This document shows positions 25,316-50,637 of a stretch of DNA of 64,000 bases, one piece after another. The first letter of the stretch is position 1. The number at the start of each line of letters is the position of its first letter. The stretch covers positions 6,283 through 70,282 of the forward strand of contig NZ_JALXBK010000044.1 in NCBI RefSeq assembly GCF_026991475.1, given 5' to 3'. The notes under the pieces are model-generated. The model did no database searches, was not told where the DNA came from, and worked only from the letters and a program-made list of their open reading frames with translations. This DNA comes from Sulfurimonas sp. Lineage in GTDB: Bacteria > Campylobacterota > Campylobacteria > Campylobacterales > Sulfurimonadaceae. Both the position numbers and the translations under genes were made by a program.

Positions 25316-27613
25316 CTAGTTTACACCACTCAATTCTCTCTCAGTACTTTTTACACTCACACCCTCAAAAACAACTTTATGATGGGCAATGGCACCACTT
25401 ACCTCTTGCTCTTCTAAACGCAGTCCTTCTGGAACTTCTTCAGAATGTAACTGAATAGCAGTCTGTTTGAAGTTTGGTTCACCTGATTTTGGACAGAAGC
25501 TCTCTTGTGTAAGAGTGTTTACAAGCTGTTCGTTAAAATGAAATGGTACAAATACCGTCCCTGGTCTTACACTTCCAGTTACTCTTACCACAACATCATC
25601 TACACGACCGCGAGGAGATGAGAGGCTCATTCTATCACCAGATTTGACTTTGAGTTTTTTTGCATCATCAGGGCTAATATCCACCCACGCTTCTGGTGCT
25701 AAATTGTCAAGTATTGCGATGTCTCTTGTTTTTGTACGCGTATGCCACTGCTCAACTGTACGCCCTGTATTTAAAATAACAGGAAATTCAGGACTTATAG
25801 GCTCTGACATAGGGTGCCACTCCAAACAAAGAAGTTTTGCCTTTTTATCTGCCGTTCTAAATGGAATATCTTCAGTATAAAGACGTTTACTACCAAGTGG
25901 AAACTGCTCATTACAAGGCCACTGAATACCGCCATGCTCTTCTATAAGCTCATAAGTCATCCCACTATAGTCACACAACTGTCCCTTAGAGACCTTACGC
26001 CACTCTTCAAACGCATCACGAGGCTCACTCCAGTTAGGAAAAAGCATCTCATTAACACCCTCAAAATATTTTGAAAATTCTAAAATGATGTCAAAATCAC
26101 CTTTGGCATCACCTATTGGTTCTACTGCCTTATTTGCTTTGTTACAACGGCGTTCAGAGTTGGTGTAAGTTCCCTCTTTTTCACCCCAAGTACCTGCGGC
26201 AAAAATTACATCAGCAATTTGTGCAGTATCTCCTAAAAAGGCATCTTGCACCACAAGCAAATCAAGTTTTGCCAAAGTTTTACGCAGTTTCTCTTGATTT
26301 ACAAAGCTTACAAGCGGGTTTGTTGCTGTTATCCAGAGTGCTTTTATCTCACCTCTGTCTATAGCTTCAATAATTTCGGCATATTTATACCCACGTTCAC
26401 GAGGAATAATCTCCTCTGGCACATTGACAATTTTTGCATACTCTTTAAGTGCTGCCTCATCCCCATAGTTTCTATACCCTGGAAGACTTGAAGTAAACCC
26501 TGTCTCACGCGTTCCCATAGCATTACACTGACCCGTAATGGAAAAAGGACCTGTTCCCTCTCGACCAATATGTCCTGTTAAAAGATGAAGGTTAATAATA
26601 GAACTTACGGTATCTGTTCCCATAAATGACTGATTAATTCCCATCGTCCAGCCAGTGATGACCTTCTCATTTGAGACAAATTCACGAGCGAGTTCATAAA
26701 GTGTTTTTACATCAATTCCAGTAATGTTTGCCACCTCTTGTGGCGGATAATCCTGAAGATGTTTTTTTAGCTCTTTTATACCGTTAGTATTGGCTTTAAT
26801 GTAACCCTCATTCTCCCAGCCCTGCTCTAAAATGATGTAAGCTAGACCGTTATAGAGTGCTAAGTCAGTTCGCGGCTTAATAGGTACATAAACATCTGCC
26901 ATCTGTGAAGTTTTACTTGCACGCGGGTCAATGACTATAACCTTTTTCTTTGGGTTTTTATTGATATGAAGTGTTAAAATTGGATGATTGTCCGCAATAT
27001 TTGCACCTACCAAAAAGATGGTATCTGCTTTTTCAAAATCTTCATAAGAGCTTGTCGCACCATCACTTCCTAAAGATTGTTTGTAACCCATAACTGCTGA
27101 AGCCATGCAGAGTGTTGTATTTCCATCATAGTTATTTGTTTGCAGTCCTAACTGCACAAATTTTCCAAGCGTGTAAAACTCTTCTGTCAAGAACTGCCCT
27201 GTCCCTATGACCGAGACAGCACTGTTTCCATGCTCCCTTTGAATGCGTTTAAACTCTGAGCTTACTTTTGTAAAAGCCTCATCCCAAGTAGCTTGTTGCA
27301 GTTCACCATCTTTACGAATGAGCGGCGTTTGAATCCTATGTGGAGAGTTTATCATCTGATGTTCTGAAAGCCCTTTTGGACAAAGCGTTCCTTTATTTAC
27401 AAAGTGCTTAGGATTTCCTTTTGTGTAAACTGCTTTACCATCTTTTACACCGATGTAAAGACCACACCCTACACCACAGTAACCACAAGTAGAAAAGACC
27501 CATTTATCTGGCTTCTTCTCATCTGCTATCATTCCAAAAGTATCATCATGAGAGAGTTTGTACTTCTCTTCTTTTATATCAAAACCTAAAAAATCTTTTA
27601 TCTTACCTATCAT
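25316..27613 (-). CDS. molybdopterin oxidoreductase, assimilatory nitrate reductase-like (NasA/NarB family)
   Basis: CGYCGVGC...LCPKG [4Fe-4S] motif, DGNTTLCMASA, GQCNAMG and LNTGRTVEQWHTRT; no Tat signal. Likely start 27613 (AGTGAG RBS). Confidence 0.85.
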   Translation of the reverse strand: MIGKIKDFLGFDIKEEKYKLSHDDTFGMIADEKKPDKWVFSTCGYCGVGCGLYIGVKDGKAVYTKGNPKHFVNKGTLCPKGLSEHQMINSPHRIQTPLIRKDGELQQATWDEAFTKVSSEFKRIQREHGNSAVSVIGTGQFLTEEFYTLGKFVQLGLQTNNYDGNTTLCMASAVMGYKQSLGSDGATSSYEDFEKADTIFLVGANIADNHPILTLHINKNPKKKVIVIDPRASKTSQMADVYVPIKPRTDLALYNGLAYIILEQGWENEGYIKANTNGIKELKKHLQDYPPQEVANITGIDVKTLYELAREFVSNEKVITGWTMGINQSFMGTDTVSSIINLHLLTGHIGREGTGPFSITGQCNAMGTRETGFTSSLPGYRNYGDEAALKEYAKIVNVPEEIIPRERGYKYAEIIEAIDRGEIKALWITATNPLVSFVNQEKLRKTLAKLDLLVVQDAFLGDTAQIADVIFAAGTWGEKEGTYTNSERRCNKANKAVEPIGDAKGDFDIILEFSKYFEGVNEMLFPNWSEPRDAFEEWRKVSKGQLCDYSGMTYELIEEHGGIQWPCNEQFPLGSKRLYTEDIPFRTADKKAKLLCLEWHPMSEPISPEFPVILNTGRTVEQWHTRTKTRDIAILDNLAPEAWVDISPDDAKKLKVKSGDRMSLSSPRGRVDDVVVRVTGSVRPGTVFVPFHFNEQLVNTLTQESFCPKSGEPNFKQTAIQLHSEEVPEGLRLEEQEVSGAIAHHKVVFEGVSVKSTERELSGVN

Positions 27614-27749
27614 TGTAAACTCACTAATTATTATATTGATTAAATAATAGCATAAAACTACATCCAAATTGCCATAATTTTGCTCATATATTAATCAATA
27701 AACAATTTACTATTATTAGAATATAATATGAAAAATATTTGAAGGATTT

Positions 27750-32814: not shown

Positions 32815-33246
32815 GTTATAGCCCCATTTCTCACTCGGATATGCTATACTAGTAGGCATAGTAACAGCAGCATTCGCAGCGTTATAGCCCCCTTTCTCAC
32901 TCGGATATGCTATACTAAGTGTTACATGGACTTCTGTGTCTCCGTAGTTATAGCCCCCTTTCTCACTCGGATATGCTATACTGGTAACATTAAAGGTATG
33001 CCATCGCAAGAGGTTATAGCCCCCTTTCTCACTCGGATATGCTATACTAAAATAGTTAATTGCTTCTCTCCATGCCTTGTTATAGCCCCCTTTCTCACTC
33101 GGATATGCTATACTTCTTGATGAAATGTTTCCTACTTTTGGAGCGTTATAGCCCCCTTTCTCACTCGGATATGCTATACTACATCAGCGTTGCTTTTATT
33201 ATTCTGTCAAGTTATAGCCCCCTTTCTCACTCGGATATGCTATACT
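32815..33246 (+). CRISPR. type II-C CRISPR array, 7 repeats and 6 spacers
   Basis: 36-nt repeat GTTATAGCCCCCTTTCTCACTCGGATATGCTATACT at 32815 (one mismatch), 32881, 32947, 33013, 33079, 33145 and 33211; all spacers are 30 nt. Confidence 0.99.
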
Positions 33247-33421
33247 ACGTGCTTCTACACCCCTTTTATAGGTGTATTGGCAGACATTTATTTCTCAAAA
33301 AAAATCTCTAAAAATTGTAAATTTTTCTCAAAATTTAGGTTTTTTCAAATTTTTAACTGCTTCTAATTAAAATATTCTTCTTGATTTTAAAGAATATTTG
33401 TTTCATTTTTACCCACTTTCT

Positions 33422-33739
33422 CTAAAATAGTAAAAGTTGTTTTTTTTCTAACTTCTCTTCCTCTTTTTTTATACCAACTAAAGTTTCCATTTTAGAGTAT
33501 TGCAAATCAGTTATTGAAAGCATCCGCACATGTCCCTTACTTGGCAGATGTGCTTTTACTCTTTTTTTGTGAGTATCTACACTATCATCACCCTTACAAA
33601 TTCGACTATATACAGAGAACTGCATCATAATAAACCCATCTTTAAGAAGAAAGCGTCTAAACTCTATATAACTTCTTTTCTCTTTTTTTGTCTTAGTTGG
33701 TAGGTCAAAAAGTACAAATATCCACATAAATTTAGCCAC
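33422..33739 (-). CDS. cas2: CRISPR-associated Cas2
   Basis: MWIFVLFDLP...FRRFLLKDGF.MMQFSVY type II Cas2 pattern. Confidence 0.95.
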   Translation of the reverse strand: MAKFMWIFVLFDLPTKTKKEKRSYIEFRRFLLKDGFIMMQFSVYSRICKGDDSVDTHKKRVKAHLPSKGHVRMLSITDLQYSKMETLVGIKKEEEKLEKKQLLLF

Positions 33740-33740
33740 T

Positions 33741-34619
33741 TTACTCTACCAATGGTAAAATGAGTTGGTTGCTGTCATTTAACTTCATAGCCCTTACAAA
33801 GCCCTCTGCCATCGTGTCACAAATATTAAGCATAAGTACATTTTCATCATTTAGTTTCATCTCCATTACTAGAACATTTAAAAGTGCTGACTTTACCTCT
33901 ATTCCTAGGTGAACATCAAGAGCATCTTCTATCTCTAGTTTTTTCACTACCATATCTACCATTGGGCGAAGTGGTTCTATCATATCATCAGCGAGATTAT
34001 AAGCATTGAGTTCAGAACGATGAAAAACTCCAAAAGTTGGAAGTAAACCGTGCGAGACTAAAGAACGAGCAACAGCACCTCTAAGTATGGCATACCCATA
34101 GTTGAGTGCTATATTTCTAGGATCAAAAGCTTTTTGATCTCTTGTAAAGTCATCAAAAAGCAGACTCCAATATCTTCTTGCTGCTAGTGCTTCTAAATTT
34201 TCACTATCGCCTGATTTTACTTTGTTTTCTAAAACAGAGACTTGAAAATCATCTTTGTTAAAGTACCTTAAAAGCCTTGCTTGGTTTGAGATTTTTTGAA
34301 TGATGATTTTTTGCCATATCTGTTTTTTTAAAGGAGCTTTCATATCTACTTGAATATGAGCGATTTGAGAGAGCCTTGAGTGCTGATGAAATGGAGTGAA
34401 GAGACCATTTGGCATATGGTAGTTATCACAGCTAAAAAGAGCTATATTACTTAAAAGTGCAGTCGTTACAATAGCCTGATTTGTCTCTAAAACTATGACC
34501 GTTATATCTTCAAGCGGCACTTGAATGATTGGTTCATCCTTTGGTTCATAAACAAACTGTCGATTTTTCATACTAAGCTTACAAGGTTTACTTACTAGTA
34601 TCGTTCTCCATGCACTCAC
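33741..34619 (-). CDS. cas1: CRISPR-associated Cas1 (type II)
   Basis: EALAARRYW, NIALNYGYAILR, GVFH...NAYNLADDMIEPLRP. Confidence 0.95.
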   Translation of the reverse strand: MSAWRTILVSKPCKLSMKNRQFVYEPKDEPIIQVPLEDITVIVLETNQAIVTTALLSNIALFSCDNYHMPNGLFTPFHQHSRLSQIAHIQVDMKAPLKKQIWQKIIIQKISNQARLLRYFNKDDFQVSVLENKVKSGDSENLEALAARRYWSLLFDDFTRDQKAFDPRNIALNYGYAILRGAVARSLVSHGLLPTFGVFHRSELNAYNLADDMIEPLRPMVDMVVKKLEIEDALDVHLGIEVKSALLNVLVMEMKLNDENVLMLNICDTMAEGFVRAMKLNDSNQLILPLVE

Positions 34620-34633
34620 AATCTTCTCCTTTT

Positions 34634-37576
34634 TTAGCTCCTATTTTTTCTTTGTCTTCCCTCTTTTATACTACCTTGCCGTTTTTCACTCTTTACCTCA
34701 ACATAGCCTCCTAAAGGGTCTACTTGATATTTTTTTATAAATACTAAATTTTGAGAACCTAAAATATCTTCTCTATTTCCATCATGTGATTTAATAAAAA
34801 TTTGTGCTGTCCCACTATGAGTGCTATCATAATAGCCCAAAATTTGAACAGATTCTTTCTTAGCAGTCTTCTTCGTCTTAACTTCTATCAAATCCCGCTT
34901 ATAAAATGAGAACTTAAACTCATACTCATCATCCATCTCTATCCATGGTTTGTTTCCAGCGACAATCGCCTTATTTGGCAACTTCTCTTTCACAAAATCA
35001 CTCACATATATAGGTACTAAATAGTATTTACCTGTCTTTTTATTTTGAAATAAATCCACTCTTGGCATAGTATCATTTAAGGCTATTCCATGTTTAAGTT
35101 TTACATTATTTGTTACACTACCACCCTTAAGTACCTCAACCTTACCATTCTCTTTTTTCGTACTTAATGTTTTATTGCTATATATGGTCTCTTTATGAGC
35201 AGCCCCACCTATCTTTCTTCGTGGCATATGCGAAACAAAGATCTCACTCACACTCTCTCTCACTCTAACTCCAAAATCTTCTAGTGGCGTTACAAATCGC
35301 AAAGCCTTAGACTTCTCCTCTTTACTTTTATAGATGTATCCCTCGCGTTTAGTTGAAACATCAGAAAGTCTTTTAACCATAGACTGCGTTGCAAATGCTA
35401 AAATTATCGCGTCTTCTGCATGATGAAGATGATTGTCTCTGTTTTTGTCACCTACTCCCCACTTATAACGCAGTTGCGAAGTAAGCATTCCATTCATAGT
35501 ATATATATGTCGTTTATCTTTTGAGTCTCTAAATGCTATATGTGCTTCCATATAGTTTTTTATAAACTTAGATATGTATGAGGTATCAGTTTTGTTTCTC
35601 TCTTTAAAAGCTATTTCACTATTTTCATCAAAATTAGTTTTTAGCAGTCTTCCTTTTTTTGCTTGTTTTATATTTTTGTAACCCTTAACTCTCTGCTCAA
35701 ATACATCAAACTTCTCTTGGCTCATATACTCATAAGGTGTTTGTGAGCCTTTATCTTGGTTCTCTTTTGTAAAACATAAAACTTTATTATTTAGAGAGTC
35801 ATCAAGTGAGCGACTATATGGCAGTATATGGTCTACTTCTGTTGCATAAGGGTCATTTAACAAATCAGGTTTAATCTCTTTACCACTGTATATACACTCA
35901 CCATTTTGCTCTTTCCAAAGTCTAAATTTCAGAAGTTCTTTAGCACTTGGTTCATGCCCTAAAATTTCAGTTGCATGAACTCTTGCTTCCTCTTTTTTGT
36001 CTCTAAAATCCCCTTGAGCTTTTTTAATCTCATTTCTATCTTTATGAGATTTTTTAATATCTCTTGTTAATTCTATATGAACAGTATCTATCGCCCCATA
36101 TTTTCTAGCAATGGCATTATAAACAAGTCGCATCTGTGCTACTGCTCTTTTAACGACTGGATTTGTCATCTCAATATTTTCTTGCTTGCTTAATGCTGGC
36201 AAGAGTAGAGTTTTTTCACCTTCAAAGATAGCCTTAAAATCATAACCTGCTCTATTACAAGCCTTATCATAATCCTCTCCCTCTTCAAGGTACGGGACGA
36301 TGTTTCTAAGCGCTTTGGTACTTAAATGCCCAAAACCAGAAAATGAAAGGCTTAATAATGCTTCACACACCTGTTTATTCTCTACAATCTCAAAAAGTTG
36401 TTTTAAACTCTCTTTATCATCTTTTTCAGTTGTTAAAATATTTGCAATGGCATCTAAAACCTCATAATCATTTTCTATAGTATCCCAAAAAAGATTATCT
36501 GCATTTTGAATTGACCTTTTTATTTTATGATAAGCAGGAAATTCTATAAGTTTTTCAGATTCAGGTTTTTTAATTTCTCCTGTTTTATAATCATGATAGA
36601 CTAAGCCTTTAAACTGCACATTTTCATCTAAATCAAGTAGTTTTCTCAAATCTGAATATTTAATTGCTCTTTGAATAGTTTTTGCTTTAAATATAATTTG
36701 TTGTATCTCTTGAAATAAAAGTAACTCTTCTTTACTCTCTATAATCAAACGCAGATTTTTAAGTTTTTGTAAGGCTCTAAAATATTCAAAACTATAAGAA
36801 CTTTTTGAAGCTCTTTTTTCATTAACTTCAAATGGACAATTTGCAACCATATCAAATACTGATTTTAAAGGTCTTTGCTCAAATGCTATCTCTTTATAAG
36901 TTTTCAATAACGTATCATTGACAAATTTATTTCCAAACTCTTTTTGTTTTGTGAAAATTATCTCTATCTCTTGCTCAAGCATACTTCTTGCAACAGAATT
37001 CTCATAGTTTAGTTTTCCCTCACTATCTTTTCCATTGCGTTTTTTCTCTTTTGTAGAGATATACTCACCAACTGTTAGGAATTCTGAACTCTCTAAAACA
37101 GTTTTATTATGCCCAATTCCAGAGAGAACTGCCTTGCCTTCACTATCTGTTACTTCATCACTTTTTCTATTGGACTTGTAACCCCTATGTTTAGCAAGAT
37201 GAATCATAATTCGAGAGAGTTCTTTGTTATTTAATTCTCTATAAAGAGCCTCTCTTCTTAAATCCCAAACATCTTTTTGCCCTTTATTGCCAATAAAAAG
37301 AGTATCTAGTTCATTTTGAGTAAGAATTTTATTTGAAAGAAGCAGTCGTTTTATTACTCGTAGTTTTTGAGCCTTGCGTTTAGTAGTTCGTCTAGCACTT
37401 CGTGCTTCACGACGAGGAAGAGCCAAAGACTTCCCATCTTTAGGGTGTTCAGCAATAGTAAATATTCTTACACCACTATCAATAATTTTATTGTTTTCTA
37501 TCTTACTATCAACATTTACTAAAGCCCAGCCTATAGAAGTTATTCCTAAATCCAATCCTAAAACTAGTTTACTCAT
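34634..37576 (-). CDS. cas9: Cas9, compact type II-C (980 aa)
   Basis: RuvC-I LGLDLG, Arg-rich bridge helix, RuvC-II HIELTR, HNH EVDHILPYS...NNKVL and RuvC-III HHAEDA are all intact; no csn2 or cas4. Confidence 0.98.
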   Translation of the reverse strand: MSKLVLGLDLGITSIGWALVNVDSKIENNKIIDSGVRIFTIAEHPKDGKSLALPRREARSARRTTKRKAQKLRVIKRLLLSNKILTQNELDTLFIGNKGQKDVWDLRREALYRELNNKELSRIMIHLAKHRGYKSNRKSDEVTDSEGKAVLSGIGHNKTVLESSEFLTVGEYISTKEKKRNGKDSEGKLNYENSVARSMLEQEIEIIFTKQKEFGNKFVNDTLLKTYKEIAFEQRPLKSVFDMVANCPFEVNEKRASKSSYSFEYFRALQKLKNLRLIIESKEELLLFQEIQQIIFKAKTIQRAIKYSDLRKLLDLDENVQFKGLVYHDYKTGEIKKPESEKLIEFPAYHKIKRSIQNADNLFWDTIENDYEVLDAIANILTTEKDDKESLKQLFEIVENKQVCEALLSLSFSGFGHLSTKALRNIVPYLEEGEDYDKACNRAGYDFKAIFEGEKTLLLPALSKQENIEMTNPVVKRAVAQMRLVYNAIARKYGAIDTVHIELTRDIKKSHKDRNEIKKAQGDFRDKKEEARVHATEILGHEPSAKELLKFRLWKEQNGECIYSGKEIKPDLLNDPYATEVDHILPYSRSLDDSLNNKVLCFTKENQDKGSQTPYEYMSQEKFDVFEQRVKGYKNIKQAKKGRLLKTNFDENSEIAFKERNKTDTSYISKFIKNYMEAHIAFRDSKDKRHIYTMNGMLTSQLRYKWGVGDKNRDNHLHHAEDAIILAFATQSMVKRLSDVSTKREGYIYKSKEEKSKALRFVTPLEDFGVRVRESVSEIFVSHMPRRKIGGAAHKETIYSNKTLSTKKENGKVEVLKGGSVTNNVKLKHGIALNDTMPRVDLFQNKKTGKYYLVPIYVSDFVKEKLPNKAIVAGNKPWIEMDDEYEFKFSFYKRDLIEVKTKKTAKKESVQILGYYDSTHSGTAQIFIKSHDGNREDILGSQNLVFIKKYQVDPLGGYVEVKSEKRQGSIKEGRQRKNRS

Positions 37577-37719: not shown

Positions 37720-39300
37720 CTATCTCTGCTTCCCAACAAAAAATCCACCTGCCATTCCAAGAGGAACAACAGTCGTATAAAACAAAAATCTGTCACTTAT
37801 TTCACTTACAAACGCAGTGATAAGAGCCAAAAAGAGCATAAATGATGCCGCTGCGTTTAGTGATGCACTTACAAATACAAGCGCTAAAAGAGGGAGAACA
37901 ATTCCCGCTATAAGCAGAGTTATAAAACGAATTTTCTTAATATTTGCAAAGTTTTCATTGAGCAGTCTTTTTGTGCGTTGAAGTTGGTACTCATTCTCTT
38001 TATTTTCAAGTGTTCTAATGTCTTCATAGGAAAAGAAAAGCTGTGCTACACCACCAAGCATTCCCATTGTCGTAAGGGGAATAATAGCCTCATGGATGCT
38101 TGATATACTACTTATAAACGCAACTAAAAAGAAACCTATGTAAGCAACACCAAAAAACTTAAAGTTTGTCGTAATTCTATTCCAAGATGGTCTCGCTTTG
38201 ATACGGTAAATCATACTCTGTGCATAAATTCCGTAAATACCGATTCCAAGTGTTATAACCTCAACAAGTAAACGTAGTATATGTGGAAAATTAAAAAAGT
38301 ACATTGCAACAACAAGGGACATTAATCCTGTAAACACTCCAAGCGCCAAAGCCTCACGAGAGAGCCACGAAGTTTTTATGTTTTTCATCGCGGTCATTGC
38401 CAAGAATGGACGACCAAGATGCAAGGCTGAAAGTGGTAAGCCAAGAGCAGCAGGAAGCATTACAAGCAGCGCCATAATCCAGTTCGTACTCTCAAAACCA
38501 AAGAGACTCATAAAGTCACCCAAAAAGAGCGCCATAAAACCACCTAGTGAAATTTGAGTAAGTACCGTCATAAAAACAAGTGGTATCTCTTTATGTGCAG
38601 GTTTTAAGATGTGTTCATCCATCTCTTTCATATTTTCAGGTAGATTGTCTGGCAGTGTATAACGCGTTGTAGAGTTTGTAATGCGTGCATCTGGTAAAAA
38701 CGGCATATTTGCCTGCTCATCTATGTCACGGTTAAGCCACTCTTCTACATTTACGACTTCTATTTCAATAGCTCCAGCAGGACAAGCTTGCACACATGCA
38801 GGAGACTGACCTTCGTCAAGTCTTTCGTGACACATATGACATTTTGTGACAATTTTACGCTCTTCATGAAATACAGGCACACCATAAGGACAGTTCCAAG
38901 TACAGTACTGACACCCTATACAAGTGTCATCATCATGCACAACGATGCCCGTTTCAGCGATTTTAATGTAAGACTCAGTAGGACAACCACGAAGACACTC
39001 AGGGTCTATACAATGGTTACAGCTCATAGAGTTAAGCATCTGAGTAAACGCAGGAAATTCTCCACCTTCCATCTCACCTACACGACGCCATTTTATATCG
39101 GCTGGGTTATTGTTTTGCTCATTACATGCCACTTCACAACAACGACACCCCACACAGGCAACGGCATCAAAGTGAAAACGGTATTGCTCACCCTCTTTAA
39201 GTGGCGGAATGTCGATAGAGTAAGAGCCACACTGCATATTTGTCTCAGCTTTGTGGTCTATAAAACTCTCTAAAGGTGTTTGCATATAATTCATCTCCAT
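37720..39300 (-). CDS. 4Fe-4S dicluster (DmsB/NrfC-like) fused to a DmsC-type membrane anchor
   Basis: Four Cys clusters (CVGCRCCEVAC, CNHCIDPECLRGC, CIGCQYCTWNC, CHMC...CVQAC) followed by a multi-TM region (HLGRP...SWLSRE). Confidence 0.88.
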   Translation of the reverse strand: MEMNYMQTPLESFIDHKAETNMQCGSYSIDIPPLKEGEQYRFHFDAVACVGCRCCEVACNEQNNNPADIKWRRVGEMEGGEFPAFTQMLNSMSCNHCIDPECLRGCPTESYIKIAETGIVVHDDDTCIGCQYCTWNCPYGVPVFHEERKIVTKCHMCHERLDEGQSPACVQACPAGAIEIEVVNVEEWLNRDIDEQANMPFLPDARITNSTTRYTLPDNLPENMKEMDEHILKPAHKEIPLVFMTVLTQISLGGFMALFLGDFMSLFGFESTNWIMALLVMLPAALGLPLSALHLGRPFLAMTAMKNIKTSWLSREALALGVFTGLMSLVVAMYFFNFPHILRLLVEVITLGIGIYGIYAQSMIYRIKARPSWNRITTNFKFFGVAYIGFFLVAFISSISSIHEAIIPLTTMGMLGGVAQLFFSYEDIRTLENKENEYQLQRTKRLLNENFANIKKIRFITLLIAGIVLPLLALVFVSASLNAAASFMLFLALITAFVSEISDRFLFYTTVVPLGMAGGFFVGKQR

Positions 39301-39391: not shown

Positions 39392-40648
39392 ATGTATAGA
39401 TTAAATTTTAAAGACTACTTTTGCATTTCAAAATTTCTTGCACGCTTTGAGCAGCGAGACATTAACATATTAAATGTAAAACTACCCTACAATGACCCTT
39501 TAAAAAATATATCTGAACTTTATAAAAAATATGCAGAGGACGAAGATAGAGACTCTACACTTTATGAGTTTTTCAGACATACCAGAACTATTATACTTTG
39601 GCTTATTTTTATTGCTGTTATGAGTTTCTCTTTTGTAAGCATACAAAAAAGTATAAACATTAAAATCTATCTTATTTTTGGTCTTGTCGTTCCTTTTATC
39701 TATCTGCTTTATGTTGCATGGCAGACACTCTTTTACAAATTTCCAAACAAAGAGGAGAGTTCTTTAGTGGCTTTTTTTGCAAAGAAGTACCCTGAATATG
39801 ACAAACGAGACACCCATGTCTTAAAAACATTCACTACACTTTTACTCGTTGAAATGGGTATTGTTTATACTTTTAGCATCCTCTTAAGCACTATTTTCAT
39901 TTTTTGGGCATACTCCATAGAATTTTACAGTGAGAGTAGCTATGCTTTTTTAGACCCTATTAAGATGTGGTTTGGCACTGCAGATAGTGCTGGACATGCA
40001 GTTTTACCGCAACATTTTTTTGCCATTGCAATTACTGTAAGTATAATTATTCTTTTACTATTAAAAAGTTTTATATGGTTTCTCGCAAAAAGAAATCTTC
40101 AAAAAGCCATGAAACAAGCACTACTACAAAAAGCACAACCTCTTTTACAAAAGTTTTCTCAAAGCGTTGCAATAGAGATTTCAAATAATGAAAAGAAAAC
40201 TACAGAAAATTTTGAGATACGAAAAAACAGATCGCAAAATATAGACCGCTCACAATATGACCTGCTTTTTTATCAGTTTGAGCTAGATGAAAAAGTTGTA
40301 GATATTTTAGAGTTGCAAAATGATAGTGACGTAGCTAACCTAAACGCAGCGTATTATAGTTTTGCTCTGTATGGAGGAGAACAAGAAGACAGTAAAACAC
40401 TTAAAGAGTTACAAAATCTTGTCATTGTTGTAGCTTCTGCACAAACACTTCCAGACAACAGTTTTAAAGGTGATATGCTTACAATACTAGAAACAGATAG
40501 AGTACGGCAAATATGGATAATACCTTTAGTAGAAAAAGATGGCATTGTCCAAAAAGCATATAAGGGAGATTACCTCTATGAAGAGTGGCAAAAACAGATA
40601 AATGAGACTATAGGCGACTATAGGATAAGGTTGTACAATGAAAAGTAA
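39392..40648 (+). CDS. DUF2868-like membrane protein
   Basis: About four TM helices plus a soluble C-terminal domain; overlaps the following GTPase gene, as in known DUF2868/DUF3482 pairs. Confidence 0.55.
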   Translation: MYRLNFKDYFCISKFLARFEQRDINILNVKLPYNDPLKNISELYKKYAEDEDRDSTLYEFFRHTRTIILWLIFIAVMSFSFVSIQKSINIKIYLIFGLVVPFIYLLYVAWQTLFYKFPNKEESSLVAFFAKKYPEYDKRDTHVLKTFTTLLLVEMGIVYTFSILLSTIFIFWAYSIEFYSESSYAFLDPIKMWFGTADSAGHAVLPQHFFAIAITVSIIILLLLKSFIWFLAKRNLQKAMKQALLQKAQPLLQKFSQSVAIEISNNEKKTTENFEIRKNRSQNIDRSQYDLLFYQFELDEKVVDILELQNDSDVANLNAAYYSFALYGGEQEDSKTLKELQNLVIVVASAQTLPDNSFKGDMLTILETDRVRQIWIIPLVEKDGIVQKAYKGDYLYEEWQKQINETIGDYRIRLYNEK

Positions 40649-42032
40649 CGCGCCTACTTTTGCTTTTATAGGCAAACCAAATAACGGCAAAAGCAGCATG
40701 ATATCGGCTCTGACTTTTGATGATCGCATTGAAGTCTCTAAAAGTGTCGGAACTACAACAAAAGCACTACAGTATAGCTACTATTATAAACAAAAAGTGG
40801 TGTGTAACTTTTTTGATACACCAGGGTTTGAACAGGCAAAAAAGATTGTCTCTTTTATAAAAGAGCATGAGAGTGAATACTTTGGACATGGGGTGCTCGA
40901 TGCCTTTGTGTCACAATACAGCGAAGATGCAAGAATGCAAAAAGATATTGAAATTATCCGTGCCGTGCTTGCGAATGATTTCATAGTATTTGTCATAGAT
41001 GTTTCACAACACTACAATCAAAATGTCATAGGCTATGAGTTTGAGATACTTCACTTTTTGAAAAAACCAGTCTTAATACTGCTAAACAAAATTCAAGAGC
41101 AGGACTACACACAAGAGTGGAAAGAGGCACTCTCTAGGTATAAACTGACAAATACTCACCCTATAAATCCACTTAACAGTAGTTATGAGAACATAGATAC
41201 AATATACAAAAATCTCTATACCGTTGATGCAACACTCCAGCAAAAACAGTTTTTAGACCAACTTTTACACCTGCATAAAGTACATTACCAAGAGAAAAAG
41301 AGTCTGAGTGCCAAAGAGATTGCAGGGATGATAGTAGAGATTTTACAGTTTGAATCTGTTGTAAAGTTCAAAGAAAAAGATGCAGATGAGACTCTTAAAG
41401 AGGGAGCACTGAAAAAATACCAAAATGGCATTTACGCAATAGAGAAAAATAATAAAACAAAAATAGAGCAAATATGGGGTTATTACCAAATAAAAGTGCT
41501 AGATGAGCGTGCCGAAATAGATGCAAAACAGAGCGTGAACTTAGGACTTACAAAAAACCGTTTAGCTCTCATTGGCGCTAGTGTAGGAGCCATAGGAAGT
41601 GGCGCGGCAGTCGCGCCCATAGCTCTTCTTGATGGTGGTATTTCTACTGCTGTTGCTGCAACTGTTGGGGGATTGATAGGGGCAAAAGCAGCCTATGCGA
41701 TAGGCGAGAAATTTGGTTCGTATATTATTTCAAATCATAAAATCATCCATAAAATGGATGCAAAAAACTACAATGCTACATTTATTTTACTCAAGCGTTC
41801 TCTTGAACATCTCTACCGTCTTATCAAACACGGTCATGCAAACAGAGAAGCCATAGTAATACCAAAAAATCCAGATTCTTGGCATTTTCCTGCAGAGTGG
41901 AGTTTTCAAAGAGATGAAGAGAAAAAAATAGCTGCGTTTCATAACAGTATAGTCAAAGATGAAAATACCAAGCAAGTTGAAGAAGAGTTATGTGAACTTA
42001 TAGAGAAGGTGATTGAGCGAGAAATTAGCTAA
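40638..42032 (+). CDS. GTPase with DUF3482-like glycine-zipper C-terminus
   Basis: G1 GKPNNGKSS, G3 DTPG and G4 NKIQ; hydrophobic Gly/Ala hairpin GASVGAIGSGAA...GGLIGA. Confidence 0.7.
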   Translation: MKSNAPTFAFIGKPNNGKSSMISALTFDDRIEVSKSVGTTTKALQYSYYYKQKVVCNFFDTPGFEQAKKIVSFIKEHESEYFGHGVLDAFVSQYSEDARMQKDIEIIRAVLANDFIVFVIDVSQHYNQNVIGYEFEILHFLKKPVLILLNKIQEQDYTQEWKEALSRYKLTNTHPINPLNSSYENIDTIYKNLYTVDATLQQKQFLDQLLHLHKVHYQEKKSLSAKEIAGMIVEILQFESVVKFKEKDADETLKEGALKKYQNGIYAIEKNNKTKIEQIWGYYQIKVLDERAEIDAKQSVNLGLTKNRLALIGASVGAIGSGAAVAPIALLDGGISTAVAATVGGLIGAKAAYAIGEKFGSYIISNHKIIHKMDAKNYNATFILLKRSLEHLYRLIKHGHANREAIVIPKNPDSWHFPAEWSFQRDEEKKIAAFHNSIVKDENTKQVEEELCELIEKVIEREIS

Positions 42033-42134: not shown

Positions 42135-42623
42135 TTATATTTTTCCTTTCTCTTTTGCCATTTTCAAAAATCGTGTTTTATCACCCTCTTTTTTAAACGC
42201 AGTGTTTGCAAAGAAGAGTGCATTTTGTTGGCTTTGTACCATGACACCTTCATCAAGTTGAATGACTTTTATAATATCATCCCACGCAACTACTTCATTA
42301 TTTCCATGCAGTCCATTTTCATCAAGAGTAAAATGTACATCCATATTTTTAGGAACATTCTTATCATAAAAGCGAGAAAGCATTCTTTTTCTTAAAAACC
42401 ATCTACCATAGTACCAATAACCTACTAAAAAAGTAGAAAGATAAAGCAGTCCATAACTATTGTGTTTAAGTGCGCCAACAATGCCAAACTGTACAAGTCC
42501 CACAAAGAACCATCCCATATATCTTTTGTTGGAGTGACGCATATCGTAATCGTAGTAGAGTTTGCTTGTTTTTAGCGCAAGTTCTTTACTCCACTCAAAA
42601 TTCACTTCTATTGGTTTAGACAT
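42135..42623 (-). CDS. YcxB-like membrane protein
   Basis: Two TM helices plus HFTLDENGL...VAWDDI..V...ALFFANTAF YcxB pattern. Confidence 0.7.
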   Translation of the reverse strand: MSKPIEVNFEWSKELALKTSKLYYDYDMRHSNKRYMGWFFVGLVQFGIVGALKHNSYGLLYLSTFLVGYWYYGRWFLRKRMLSRFYDKNVPKNMDVHFTLDENGLHGNNEVVAWDDIIKVIQLDEGVMVQSQQNALFFANTAFKKEGDKTRFLKMAKEKGKI

Positions 42624-43221
42624 GCTCTTCGCACTCCTCTATCATCAGTTCACTCTTTTTGATACACCCTGCGTCTTCAAGTTCTTCTATAAGCCCTAAT
42701 GTTTGTATATAGAGTGCATCATATATCTTTTTATTTTTTGCATACAAACGGCTCTGCTTTTTTCCATACCAGTATGCGAGCGCTACCGTTGAAGCAAAAA
42801 GCGAATATATCCACCCTTGCCACTCTTTAAGGTTAAGTAATACGATGAAGTATTGCACAGAAAAGAGAACAAAAAATTCGATTGAAAAGATGATGACAAG
42901 GGTAGCACTCTGCTCAAAGTCAAGCGTATATTTTTCAAGCTCTTTAAGTCTTGCCAAATTTACATTAACTAGCTGCGCTTTTGACTTGCAATCATCTTTT
43001 AAATCATCTAATTTTATATCTTTTAAATGTATATTTGAGAGGTTATACTCTACATTTGTCTGCATATAATCTTCAAGTAACTGCGGATTTTTATCAAGTA
43101 TTTGAATTATTTCTGCTTCATTTACTCTATTTTTACCAGCAACTCTTTGTACATCTTGCAAAACAATATCATACAGTCCAACAGTTTTTATTTCTCGAGC
43201 AACTCTGTCTAAGTTTATCAA
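42616..43221 (-). CDS. hypothetical membrane protein
   Basis: 201-aa ORF with two C-terminal TM segments; overlaps the next gene. Confidence 0.7.
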   Translation of the reverse strand: MINLDRVAREIKTVGLYDIVLQDVQRVAGKNRVNEAEIIQILDKNPQLLEDYMQTNVEYNLSNIHLKDIKLDDLKDDCKSKAQLVNVNLARLKELEKYTLDFEQSATLVIIFSIEFFVLFSVQYFIVLLNLKEWQGWIYSLFASTVALAYWYGKKQSRLYAKNKKIYDALYIQTLGLIEELEDAGCIKKSELMIEECEEHV

Positions 43222-43272: not shown

Positions 43273-44961
43273 TTAATTTGCAAACGCAGGATCGTCTGCA
43301 GGTTCTATCTCTTCTTCAAGACCATAAGATGCAGTTTGATCTTTTGCAGGTAAAAAGATACCTATAAGTCCTTTTATACCAACACTCATAATAATGTTGT
43401 ATAAAAATATCGCCCAAGCAGCAAGTAGCATTGTACCAAACATAGCAGCAAAAACCATATCAGGATTAAACTGTCCATCAACATAAAGGTGGCGACGAAG
43501 CATACCGTCAAGTCCTGCCATACCCATAAAGGCACCCATACCAATACCACCTATAAGATGCAGCCAAAAGTGTGCATTTGAGAGTTTATGTGAGTAAACT
43601 TTCGTGTTGTTTGTTACAAGTGGCCACATAACATATACTGCACTATAAAGTGTCATATAAAGCCCAACAATTAAAGCAATATGCACATGCGCACCGATAA
43701 TCCACTGTGTATTGTGTAAAACACGGTTCATACCCATATCTGCTTGAATAATCGCAGCCGGAACAGCCAAACCAAAGCCTACTAGACCACCTAGAAGATA
43801 TTTTAACTCCATTGTCATTTTAAGTGGACGCGCTTTCCAAAGTGTTACAAGTGTAATAAACAGCGCAAGTCCTTGAGTCAGTAACTCAAACGCAGTAACC
43901 ATCTCACCAGAGATAAGTTTCATCATCTCAGGCTGTCCTTGATCACCAAGAAGATGATGTGACCAAACCATCCAAGAAACAAGCAACTCAAGCATCAAGG
44001 CAGCACGAGCCACATTTTCCATGAAAAGTTTTTGCCCTGTAATGAGCGTTGCAAGTAAATACCATGAACCTGCAACATAAATAAGCACAAGTCCATCAGC
44101 AACAAGGTCAAGCCCCCACCAAAAGAAGTTCTTGTACAAAAGTGCATCAATGGCAGTTACATCCAAAGGATGCCCCGATGCATCAAAAATTAGATAAATA
44201 AGCACTAAAACACCAGCACCTAAAATAACAAGTGCATCTAAAAATGTATCAACAGTACCACGAAAAATTGCAACAACAGGAAGTGCTAAAGCAGGCTCTT
44301 TTGTGTAGGGCTGTTTTCCCTGAAGTTTATTGATAAGATTTAAAAAACCATCAATACCAAAACCAGAAATAAGCAACTCTTTTGTTGTTTTATTTTTATG
44401 AATACCTACACGAGCAAAAATTGTTGCATAAATATTGTATATAAATGTCAAAGTACCAAGCATAATAAGTGCAATACCAACAATAAATACTAAACCACCA
44501 ATAACTTTAAACTGATGAGTATCAGCAGGAAGTGGCCAGTAAAGCGTATATAGTGGTGCATAAGACCAAACAAATGCAGCTATCCAAGCTAATGCTGTTC
44601 CCCCAGTAATAAGCATCCAAGTAATATTGGCTAGTTTAATACTGTAAAGAGGTTTCTTTGTAAGATATGGTACCAAAAATGTAAAAGCACCAAAAACAAG
44701 TTGGTATGTAGAACCAAAAATACCTACAATAGGATGCACAGTCATAATAGAGAAAAAGTGCTCAGGATGAAAAAATTGCGCTGGAATAGGGTTAAGTGGT
44801 ACATGTCCAACTTCTACCATTCTCATTATCATTCCCTCGATAGCAACCAAACCATAGAACAAAAATGCCATAACTACAGCACGAAGTGTAACCTTTTGCA
44901 GAGCGTTTAAACCTTTATGGTCAAAATTTGTACCATTTATCAATTTATTCATATAACTCAT
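43273..44961 (-). CDS. heme-copper oxidase superfamily subunit I, B-family-related with an altered active site (gNOR-like)
   Basis: Heme ligands VHP (helix II) and HVH (helix X) and the WSHH pair are present. Helix VI reads FWWGLDLVAD instead of FWWxGHPxVY. Confidence 0.85.
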   Translation of the reverse strand: MSYMNKLINGTNFDHKGLNALQKVTLRAVVMAFLFYGLVAIEGMIMRMVEVGHVPLNPIPAQFFHPEHFFSIMTVHPIVGIFGSTYQLVFGAFTFLVPYLTKKPLYSIKLANITWMLITGGTALAWIAAFVWSYAPLYTLYWPLPADTHQFKVIGGLVFIVGIALIMLGTLTFIYNIYATIFARVGIHKNKTTKELLISGFGIDGFLNLINKLQGKQPYTKEPALALPVVAIFRGTVDTFLDALVILGAGVLVLIYLIFDASGHPLDVTAIDALLYKNFFWWGLDLVADGLVLIYVAGSWYLLATLITGQKLFMENVARAALMLELLVSWMVWSHHLLGDQGQPEMMKLISGEMVTAFELLTQGLALFITLVTLWKARPLKMTMELKYLLGGLVGFGLAVPAAIIQADMGMNRVLHNTQWIIGAHVHIALIVGLYMTLYSAVYVMWPLVTNNTKVYSHKLSNAHFWLHLIGGIGMGAFMGMAGLDGMLRRHLYVDGQFNPDMVFAAMFGTMLLAAWAIFLYNIIMSVGIKGLIGIFLPAKDQTASYGLEEEIEPADDPAFAN

Positions 44962-45572
44962 TGGATACCTCCATTATCTTTACACCCTACAACTTTTACC
45001 AAGTCTTTTACCATCATCAAATCTTTCCCATCTTCACTATACTGTTTTGGTCCAGAGTATTCTGTCGATGTCAAATCGAAAACACCATTGTGGTTAAATG
45101 TCCAAAGAATATCATTTGAATCAAGAATGCCATTCACATCTGTTCCCGGATTTACCTGCATCTGCATTACTAGAGAACCATCTTGACGAAAAAGTCCAAA
45201 ACCATATACTAAGTCTCTACTATGTACATCAAACTCAACCGTTTGACCACATTGAATGACTATCTGTTTAGGAAGTCCTATCCATTTATGATTTTGAATT
45301 TCAAATTCATATTTTGCATCTGGTTTAATGTTATGTCTGTCAATATCCTGCGATACCCACGGAATAGTATTATATGTAAAAATATGGTGCCCCACACCAC
45401 CTGCAACTAAAAAGGCCATATACCAATAAAATGGTATTCTAAAGACTGATTTAGCATCTTTTCTCGTAAGGTTATATCCAAACCATGCAACAACGGAAAT
45501 AATCATTGCAGAATATATGGAGTAAGCAACCCAGTGAAAAGACAATAACTCAGCAGAGTTTGTAAACGTCAT
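44958..45572 (-). CDS. heme-copper oxidase subunit II-like cupredoxin lacking CuA ligands
   Basis: Two TM helices plus a cupredoxin domain; SRDLVYGF and STEYSGPKQ replace DVxH and CxEYCGxxH. Confidence 0.8.
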   Translation of the reverse strand: MTFTNSAELLSFHWVAYSIYSAMIISVVAWFGYNLTRKDAKSVFRIPFYWYMAFLVAGGVGHHIFTYNTIPWVSQDIDRHNIKPDAKYEFEIQNHKWIGLPKQIVIQCGQTVEFDVHSRDLVYGFGLFRQDGSLVMQMQVNPGTDVNGILDSNDILWTFNHNGVFDLTSTEYSGPKQYSEDGKDLMMVKDLVKVVGCKDNGGIQ

Positions 45573-45627: not shown

Positions 45628-45641
45628 TTGATATATATCAA
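45628..45641. promoter_or_regulatory. FNR/Crp-family box
   Basis: Perfect TTGAT-ATAT-ATCAA, centred 41.5 nt upstream of the TSS predicted from TATAAT (minus strand, 45600-45605). Confidence 0.8.
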
Positions 45642-48996: not shown

Positions 48997-50637
48997 GTGC
49001 CATCATCAAACATAAAAACTTCTGGCTTTTCGCTTGCAAAGGGCAAAGAACTTACAGGTGATGACTTTTATGCTGTCAAAACCATGGGAAACATTACTGT
49101 GGGCATCGTTTGTGATGGTGTCGGTAGTGCCGATCATGGCGCCGAAGCAGCACAAAGAACAACAGAGTACCTACTTAATAATTTTAAGATACGCCCAAAA
49201 AGTTGGAGTATTGAAAAATCAATCACAACTTTTATAAAATCTATCAACTCTATTCTTTATCAAGAATCACAGGTAAATTATGAACGCAGTGAGCTTGTTA
49301 CCACTCTCACCATTGTCGTCATAGCTGGAAGTCGTCTCTATGGTGCAAATGTCGGAGATAGCCGAGTTTATATCTACAGGGATGAAAAACTCAATCAAAT
49401 CTCTTACGACCATGCAATGGATGAAGAGGGATATGAAAATGTTCTAACCCAAGCCATAGGTATAGATAAAGAGGTAGAGATTTACTACTTTGAAAACACC
49501 ATTAAAGAGAGAGATAAAATTCTTCTTTGTAGCGATGGGCTATATAATGTTTTAGATAAAGAGCAGATAGAAAAACAACTCTCTGTGGGTTCTGCTACAA
49601 GCCTTGTAAAAAAAGCAAGTACAATCAAAGAGGACAATCTGCCTGATGATACGACGGCAGCTGTATTAGAAATTTTAAAAGTTGATGAAAAAGAGATACT
49701 TCGTAAGCAAGAGCTGCTTATTCTTCAAACACTTAAAGAGGGCGAAGTTATTGACGGATATGTGCTAGAAAAATCACTTATCCAAAACCAAAGAACATGG
49801 TTGTGTAAGAAAAAAACAAAACGCTACATCTTAAAATTTCCTCCAATTGAAGCAATAGACGATGCTACACTCATAGACCTTTTTGTCAAAGAAGCATGGA
49901 ATGCAAAACGCCTCAAAGCAGACTGTTTTCCAAAAGCTGTTATTCCTAAAAACAGAACAATGCGTTACTATGTTTTACAATATATACAGGGAGAGAGCTT
50001 AGAAGCGTATCTCAAAAAACATCACTTAAGTGTGGATGATGCCATTAAACTTACTAAAACACTTCTGCAAATGGCGCAATACCTCATTAAACGAGATTTA
50101 GTTCATGGCGATATAAAACCAGACAATATTATGGTTGTAAAAGATGAAGATGAAAATCTCGTGTTTAAAATCATAGACTTTGGTAATATTACAGAAGTTT
50201 TTTCTACAAGTTCAAAAGCAGGAACGCCAAGTTTTCTCTCACCTCAAAGGTTTCAAGGCGAAGCCATTAGTGAGACGAGTGAGATTTTTTCTATTGGGGT
50301 AACTCTCTATTTGGCACTTACTAAAAAATACCCTTATGGGGAGATAGAACCATTTACAAATCCCTCTTTTAAAGAGGCGCAAAGACCAAGCAAATATAAT
50401 GCTAATATTCCTAAATGGTTTGAGAGTATCATCTTAAGAGCTATATCACGAGATGAACATAAAAGGTATGAACACTACTCAGAGATGTTGTATGAGTTAG
50501 AGCGTCCTCAAAATGTAAAACCCTACTTTAATGAAAATAGTTCCATAATAGAGCGCGATCCTGTTCTGTTTTACAGAGTTGGTTTTACAGCTATGACACT
50601 ACTCAATCTTATACTTATCGCACTTTTACTGCGATAA
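48997..50637 (+). CDS. bifunctional PP2C phosphatase / Ser-Thr kinase with C-terminal TM
   Basis: VCDGVG, VGDSRVY, CSDGL and DDTT (PP2C); HGDIKPDN and DFG (kinase). Confidence 0.88.
   Translation: MPSSNIKTSGFSLAKGKELTGDDFYAVKTMGNITVGIVCDGVGSADHGAEAAQRTTEYLLNNFKIRPKSWSIEKSITTFIKSINSILYQESQVNYERSELVTTLTIVVIAGSRLYGANVGDSRVYIYRDEKLNQISYDHAMDEEGYENVLTQAIGIDKEVEIYYFENTIKERDKILLCSDGLYNVLDKEQIEKQLSVGSATSLVKKASTIKEDNLPDDTTAAVLEILKVDEKEILRKQELLILQTLKEGEVIDGYVLEKSLIQNQRTWLCKKKTKRYILKFPPIEAIDDATLIDLFVKEAWNAKRLKADCFPKAVIPKNRTMRYYVLQYIQGESLEAYLKKHHLSVDDAIKLTKTLLQMAQYLIKRDLVHGDIKPDNIMVVKDEDENLVFKIIDFGNITEVFSTSSKAGTPSFLSPQRFQGEAISETSEIFSIGVTLYLALTKKYPYGEIEPFTNPSFKEAQRPSKYNANIPKWFESIILRAISRDEHKRYEHYSEMLYELERPQNVKPYFNENSSIIERDPVLFYRVGFTAMTLLNLILIALLLR

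Follow-up and report, generated by a model that had tools for sequence, protein, structure and literature searches.

The closest described systems to the operon reported here are the gNOR (norGH) enzymes. Murali et al. (2024; PMC11214002) describe gNOR as a heme-copper oxidase (HCO) derived from the B family, with Asp in place of an active-site His and no Tyr, whose subunit II is a cupredoxin lacking CuA and for which quinol oxidation is possible. Here we analyze a 64,000-nucleotide stretch of DNA from Sulfurimonas sp. (NCBI RefSeq assembly GCF_026991475.1, contig NZ_JALXBK010000044.1, positions 6,283 to 70,282 of the forward strand; hereafter the window, whose own numbering is used throughout) and an operon within it whose catalytic gene, judged by its sequence, is a gNOR subunit I and so belongs to a family already known.

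According to the same paper, gNOR favors sulfidic habitats and is uncharacterized, the Tyr-less HCO families have no migrated Tyr, and the Tyr-less HCOs that have been assayed, eNOR and bNOR, are nitric oxide (NO) reductases. A published table (PMC8756737) gives Asp at the Tyr position of gNOR, lists Sulfurimonas, Sulfurovum and Persephonella as hosts, and cites Sievert et al. (2008), which with Hemp & Gennis (2008) is one of the other published accounts of norGH. Annotation of gNOR is now routine in metagenome studies. Its function rests on modelling, genomic context and a bioinorganic mimic, and our search of the literature up to 2026 found no biochemical study of any gNOR.

Subunit I and its helix-VI site

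The open reading frame at 43273..44961 matches Pfam COX1 (PF00115) at E=1e-48 and has the His ligands to a low-spin and a high-spin heme that mark the HCO superfamily. It scores far under all NCBIfam equivalog cut-offs for subunit I of the aa3, cbb3 and SoxB enzymes. Its best solved relative in HMMER searches is subunit I of Thermus thermophilus ba3 (E about 1e-5), and a protein of Sulfurovum sp. NBC37-1 is 86% identical to it. The gene and the residues on which its assignment depends are as follows; D..D denotes the joint presence of Asp at the His and Tyr positions.

43273..44961, minus strand: gNOR subunit I, catalytic, 562 amino acids, intact frame (assigned from Pfam COX1, the D..D clade and identity to the NBC37-1 protein)
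44734-44736, minus strand: His76 (TVHP), helix-II heme ligand, aligned to the ba3 ligand and conserved
44107..44109, minus strand: Asp285 (GAC), at the site of the helix-VI CuB/FeB ligand His (ba3 His233), from the ungapped alignment and its WW anchor
44095..44097, minus strand: Asp289 (GAT), at the site of the cross-linked Tyr (ba3 Tyr237), from the ungapped alignment and the published gNOR table
43987..43989, minus strand: Glu325 (LMLELL), helix VII, 10 residues ahead of the His-His pair, from the alignment
43954..43959, minus strand: His335-His336 (WSHHLL), retained helix-VII pair of metal ligands, present in all 120 close homologues listed
43681..43689, minus strand: His425 and His427 (AHVH), helix-X heme ligands, aligned to the ba3 ligands and conserved

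In the HMMER alignment, DALLYKNFFWWGLDLVAD pairs with ba3 DPLVARTLFWWTGHPIVY, which sets FFWWGLDLVAD over LFWWTGHPIVY and, in the ungapped register, Asp285 on His233 and Asp289 on Tyr237. Two other registers were obtained. HMMER with one gap puts L284 on the His and A288 on the Tyr, and hhalign puts L291 on the His and Y295 on the Tyr by means of a pair of 6- and 5-residue gaps around the motif. None of the three registers (two from HMMER, one from hhalign) brings a His to the ligand position, and only that of hhalign brings a Tyr to the cross-link position. The ungapped register is the best supported, since it retains the WW at -4/-3 from the ligand and since the distant homologue P0204, in which the segment has the identical length (WWGLHSYVN vs WWGLDLVAD), places Asp285 on a His and Asp289 on the Tyr/Asn position. 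The hhalign register (GLVLIY on GHPVVY, with compensating gaps) was rejected because it breaks the WW anchor and because Y295 is F or W in other members of the clade.

The same hhalign register is the chief reason to ask whether the enzyme might still reduce O2 with a different His and Tyr, much as the Tyr of the C family has shifted to helix VII; by profile, moreover, O2 reductases are nearest. We regard this as very improbable. Y295 is replaced by F or W in P0123 and P0124, the most distant D..D cluster representatives, and is thus not a conserved cofactor. The Tyr of the C-family (cbb3) enzymes sits 6 residues before the His-His pair, and subunit I has Ser there. With no alignment yielding a His at the ligand position, and with no migrated Tyr found by Murali et al. 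(PMC11214002), the site as read from the alignments has the His-to-Asp replacement of gNOR (Asp285) and has lost the Tyr to Asp289, with no other Tyr brought in. An earlier note on this DNA, made from the letters alone, had reported Asp at both positions, retention of the heme ligands and of the His-His pair, and an extra Glu in helix VII, and had named recruitment of another His or Tyr as the finding that would overturn it; all of its residue readings stand, and no such recruitment was found. The equivalent of the Asp289 position in cNOR we take to be Glu211.

Conservation of the altered site is complete in the sets at hand. The motif WWGLD[LM][IVG]AD occurs in each of the 120 close homologues listed and in 27 additional fragmentary cluster representatives, and a survey of the 80 closest loci in species-representative genomes (S. 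denitrificans, Persephonella and M. oxyfera lie outside this set) finds it, as GLDLVADG, in 80/80. With no exception to the motif among the relatives examined, the two substitutions are not chance. Subunit I is 79-94% (about 80%) identical between genera, of which many are represented, a pattern that bespeaks strong purifying selection. A decaying or non-catalytic oxidase relic, suggested by the loss of two residues otherwise universal in the superfamily, is hardly credible against this background: the frames are intact, the heme and metal ligands are as invariant as the D..D motif, and the operon structure and promoter box described below are conserved, so that the comparative data already contradict it.

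Glu325 is Glu in 120/120 of the close homologues listed and in P0123, and Asp in P0124. Counted from the His-His pair it would stand some three helical turns toward the cytoplasm, and we speculate that it is likelier to serve a proton path than to bind metal. A further residue, Glu359, is invariant among the gNOR relatives aligned. An attempt to map Glu325 and Glu359 onto the glutamates of cNOR was dropped, the hhalign match to the cNorB proteins (E=1.7e-4) being too weak. A preprint claim that gNOR shows a His-to-Glu change at a heme ligand was likewise set aside for subunit I, which has all three heme His.

Placement in the gNOR family

A search of 1.84 billion cluster representatives returned 295 matches, among which just two other D..D clusters are full-length, P0123 (61% identity) and P0124 (46%). 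Next below them come enzymes with His...Tyr and His...Asn, at 30% identity or less. One further match of unusual make-up is P0255, a 462-amino-acid HCO homologue on a 56-kb Logan contig, which reads WVALRFYLQ in helix VI and HWQH in place of the His-His pair and thus has another odd ligand set.

A maximum-likelihood tree recovers the D..D sequences as monophyletic (support 100/99) and apart from the two NorB proteins of the same genome; the clade falls among B-like enzymes in a tree whose backbone is poorly supported. Profile comparison with hhalign points the same way, with E=1e-56 from the gNOR profile to B-like oxidases vs E=1.7e-4 to the genome's cNorBs, a match so marginal that an origin of gNOR independent of cNOR is indicated. 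Membership of the published gNOR clade is accordingly drawn from the D..D clade, the hhalign result and the NBC37-1 identity, and from neither a curated gNOR hidden Markov model nor a named reference set. Since every testable defining feature of gNOR is present, we place the gene in the known gNOR family and in its founding host group. The earlier note had named a B-family-derived clade with Asp for this His and a predicted NO reductase function, and had asked for a phylogeny. Its account agrees with what Murali et al. 2024 (PMC11214002) say of gNOR, its suggestion of a non-heme-iron NO reductase coincides with the published prediction for that family, and the tree sets the gene in the D..D clade among B-like enzymes.

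Subunit II lacks the ligands of CuA

44958..45572, minus strand: gNOR subunit II, two N-terminal transmembrane helices followed by a cupredoxin domain without CuA ligands (from profile comparison and from AlphaFold2 and Foldseek)

The gene directly upstream of subunit I ends in a stop that overlaps the start of subunit I by 4 bp. Its product alone finds no match in Pfam. When nine orthologues, the genes preceding subunit I at two distant loci among them, are combined into a profile, it matches the ba3 subunit II CuA domain (E=6e-7 to 5e-4); in the profile the first His among the CuA ligands is Tyr, both Cys are Ser, the second His is variable and the Met is kept. In the window's protein the replacements read SRDLVYGF for S.DV.HSF and STEYSGPKQY...M for C.E.CG..H..M. 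An AlphaFold2 model from a single sequence was poor (mean predicted local distance difference test, pLDDT, 51.6) and was replaced by one from the nine-sequence alignment (pLDDT 74.6). The latter model begins with two helices, after which comes a beta domain that Foldseek superimposes on the ba3 CuA domain with a TM score of 0.56-0.63 and a root-mean-square deviation of 2.8-4 A. Subunit II is therefore of the kind described for gNOR, a cupredoxin stripped of CuA ligands. A CxxCH (heme-c) motif is absent from all four products of the cluster; with neither CuA nor heme c, electrons would probably come directly from quinol, a donor with which the sequences are consistent.

gNOR accompanies NirS and cNOR

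Four HCO genes are found in the genome, which measures 2.07 Mb and is 99.96% complete: the gNOR, a canonical cNorB that scores 646 bits against 3O0R_B, another gene of the cNorB type by nirS, and a fragment of cbb3 CcoN at a contig end. It encodes NirS and NosZ, and the host is thus a denitrifier. Within the region C6:15795-21800, the second cNorB-type gene, divergent and 39% identical to the canonical NorB, stands beside a NorC-like gene immediately ahead of nirS, and an FNR box with one mismatch, TTGACATAAATCAA, is present upstream. This nirS-linked type is the usual NorB of the relatives, the canonical type being present in only 6 of 41.

The gNOR itself is carried by 11 of the 41 relatives. 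NirS is encoded in 11/11 of these and in 7/30 of those without gNOR (Fisher p=1e-5, not corrected for phylogeny), and all 11 also carry a cNorB-type gene. Always found with NirS and cNOR and never as the sole NOR, gNOR behaves as an accessory to NirS-type denitrification. A possible exception was noted in one gNOR-positive relative (G005, contig C4:1622-2965), whose nirS-linked norB has an internal TAA; if that codon is real, gNOR would be the only intact NOR there, and it could also be an assembly error.

An FNR/Dnr-type box precedes the operon

45628..45641, no strand assigned: perfect palindrome of the FNR/Dnr type, TTGATATATATCAA, 55 bp ahead of the start codon of subunit II

The box TTGATATATATCAA lies in the divergent intergenic region that the operon has in common with a NarK-like gene. 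Exact TTGAT-N4-ATCAA occurs once in the window and 13 times in the whole genome, three of them intergenic. In other genomes of Sulfurovum the box is found at this position as well, and so it is in another genus, there with a different spacer. Among the 72 loci for which the species genomes offer enough upstream sequence, 54 have it with at most one mismatch (43 exactly), mostly 51-69 bp upstream; the half-sites are conserved and the spacer varies. Three regulators of the Crp/Fnr family are encoded in the genome, one of them next to nosZ (contig C80). The box likely fits control by anoxia or NO, as for other denitrification genes.

The shared promoter region invites another reading. NarK-like and NirA-like genes diverge from the operon and stand back-to-back with it here as well as in L018, the closest complete genome, with a NasC-like reductase near by; gNOR might then scavenge NO formed as a by-product of nitrate and nitrite assimilation and clear it from the cytoplasm. 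We consider this distinctly improbable, because the NarK-like gene is adjacent in only 10/80 species genomes, which confines the linkage to one sublineage of the family, whereas co-occurrence with NirS is complete. On the same count, adjacency to NarK and NirA was rejected as a family feature.

A probable second NO reductase of a denitrifier

Taking this evidence together, we favor, at a probability of about 0.7, the reading that this is the gNOR-type operon of a denitrifier and that it encodes a heme/non-heme-iron NO reductase, a second NOR beside cNOR. In the scheme we propose, a Crp/Fnr-family regulator acting at the TTGAT-N4-ATCAA box would activate the operon in anoxia or in the presence of NO. 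The binuclear site would hold a non-heme iron by two His and one or two carboxylates next to the high-spin heme. Four-electron reduction of O2 would be impossible without the His-Tyr cofactor, and the enzyme would convert 2 NO to N2O with menaquinol as the direct electron donor. It would act as a second NOR beside the cytochrome-c-dependent cNOR, possibly when sulfide inhibits the latter, as the literature has suggested.

Several considerations weigh against this reading. Metal content, substrate and electron donor are predictions for a family of which no member has been purified or assayed, and the geometry that Asp285 and Asp289 would give the metal site is judged from alignment. The FNR box points to control by anoxia or NO and names no substrate. 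Every gNOR-positive relative has a cNorB-type gene, so none needs gNOR for denitrification, and the statistics of co-occurrence with NirS ignore shared ancestry and gene transfer.

A true gNOR might also put its 2-His/2-Asp site to other chemistry, such as NO dismutation, N2O or nitroxyl/hydroxylamine chemistry, reduction of peroxide, or a sulfur-linked reaction. We think this rather unlikely. It gains from the basis of the family's assigned function, which is modelling, context and a mimic, and from the cNOR that all hosts here already possess, since a distinct role would explain the keeping of both; the two additional genes of the cluster, described below, have no counterpart in other NORs. 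The tight co-occurrence of gNOR with NirS, the enzyme that produces NO, speaks against it, as do a promoter box of the FNR/Dnr kind that denitrification genes typically carry and the NO reductase activity of the Tyr-less HCOs that have been assayed (eNOR and bNOR; Murali et al.).

Two further genes in the cluster

42616..43221, minus strand: third gene of the cluster, 201 amino acids, N-terminal half soluble, then two predicted transmembrane helices (from co-occurrence and alignment)
42135..42623, minus strand: fourth gene, 162 amino acids, YcxB-like (Pfam YcxB E=9e-4, below the cut-off), overlapping the stop of the third gene

The third gene directly follows subunit I in all Campylobacterota loci read. 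It is present in exactly those 11 of the 41 relatives that carry subunits I and II, and in 75/80 species genomes, with four of the five misses falling at contig ends; it is absent from two gNOR loci outside the Campylobacterota. Its product has no match in Pfam or NCBIfam and no conserved Cys or His, and may be a subunit or an assembly factor that has yet to be described. The YcxB-like gene follows it in 59/80 loci and is thus frequent without being universal. In one of the two gNOR loci outside the Campylobacterota (L013, distant, 46% identical), subunit I is followed in place of the third gene by a gene encoding a hemerythrin-domain protein (7714-8274), which may be a partner related to NO or O2.

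One could go further and picture the Campylobacterota gNOR as a module of three or four components with a 2-His/2-Asp(+Glu) chemistry distinct from that of cNOR, for example sulfide-tolerant turnover of NO or another product or coupling, in which the third protein is a required subunit or assembly factor. This extension is unlikely to hold as a whole.

Neighboring loci

Immediately beyond the NirA-like gene lies a gene for a fused PP2C phosphatase-Ser/Thr kinase of 546 amino acids (48997-50637, plus strand), whose position is conserved in L018. On the other side of the operon, between the YcxB-like and the DmsBC-like genes, a 418-amino-acid gene of no assigned function and a 464-amino-acid GTPase with DUF3482 occupy 39392-42032 (plus strand); this pair has no counterpart at the same place in L018.

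The DmsBC-like gene (37720-39300, minus strand) encodes an unusual fusion of a 4Fe-4S DmsB-like protein with a DmsC-like membrane anchor. In relatives it pairs with a NasC/NapA-like molybdoenzyme, which in the window has 783 amino acids and lies at 25316-27667 (minus strand); the two are adjacent in L018, and together they could form a membrane-anchored complex resembling nitrate reductase. In the window they are split by a few other genes and by a type II CRISPR-Cas locus (32815-37576) that encodes a Cas9 of 980 amino acids (34634-37576) and Cas1 (33741-34619), with a short array at 32815-33247 of about 6.6 units at a 66-bp period.

Significance

Much of the N2O production in sulfidic habitats may be owed to a set of predicted NO reductase families, gNOR among them. 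The locus brings no new kind of enzyme, and what it adds for the Campylobacterota clade is minor: the 201-amino-acid third gene, the FNR/Dnr-type box, and the occurrence of gNOR only with NirS and cNOR. These additions offer handles for a first biochemistry, as the third gene is a candidate for co-expression and the FNR-type operator predicts inducing conditions. Because gNOR always accompanies NirS and cNOR, a cNOR-deficient background would be needed to see a phenotype.

Comparison with known systems

T. thermophilus ba3 (PDB 1EHK/1XME) is the closest solved relative of both subunits and shares with the window's enzyme the heme ligands, the His-His pair and the two-gene order. In contrast, ba3 has the His233-Tyr237 pair and a CuA center where the window's enzyme has Asp285, Asp289 and no CuA. 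With the His-Tyr pair replaced and CuA lost, the O2 mechanism of ba3 is not available to it; the features that define B-family O2 reductases (the His-Tyr cofactor, a three-His CuB and CuA) are all lacking.

The cNOR enzymes (NorCB; P. aeruginosa 3O0R and the two NorBs of this genome) resemble it in a presumed conversion of 2 NO to N2O at a heme and a non-heme metal with a carboxylate, and in having no Tyr cofactor, but they have three His and a Glu at the metal and a cytochrome c subunit. Subunit I shows neither this FeB ligand set nor the affinity to the C family that cNOR and qNOR have in common, and the cluster offers neither a heme-c subunit nor the fused N-terminal domain of qNOR. The qNOR enzymes and E. 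coli bo3 are alike in lacking CuA and heme c, but qNOR is a single fused polypeptide related to the C family and bo3 an A-family O2 reductase with the His-Tyr cofactor, and the window's enzyme is neither. The sNOR and bNOR enzymes are likewise B-like HCOs without the Tyr, and P0204 has the WWGL context too; unlike the window's enzyme, they retain the His of helix VI, carry Asn where the Tyr would be and reportedly have CuA-type subunits, so that D..D here stands against H..N in P0204 and P0266.

With gNOR (norGH), finally, the locus shares the Asp/Asp site, the cupredoxin subunit II without CuA, the affinity to the B family and a host of sulfidic habitats, and the host genera are the same (Sulfurovum/Sulfurimonas). 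The third gene, the YcxB-like gene and the FNR-type box go unmentioned in the gNOR passages of the publications consulted, and in the core of the operon there is no difference from gNOR.

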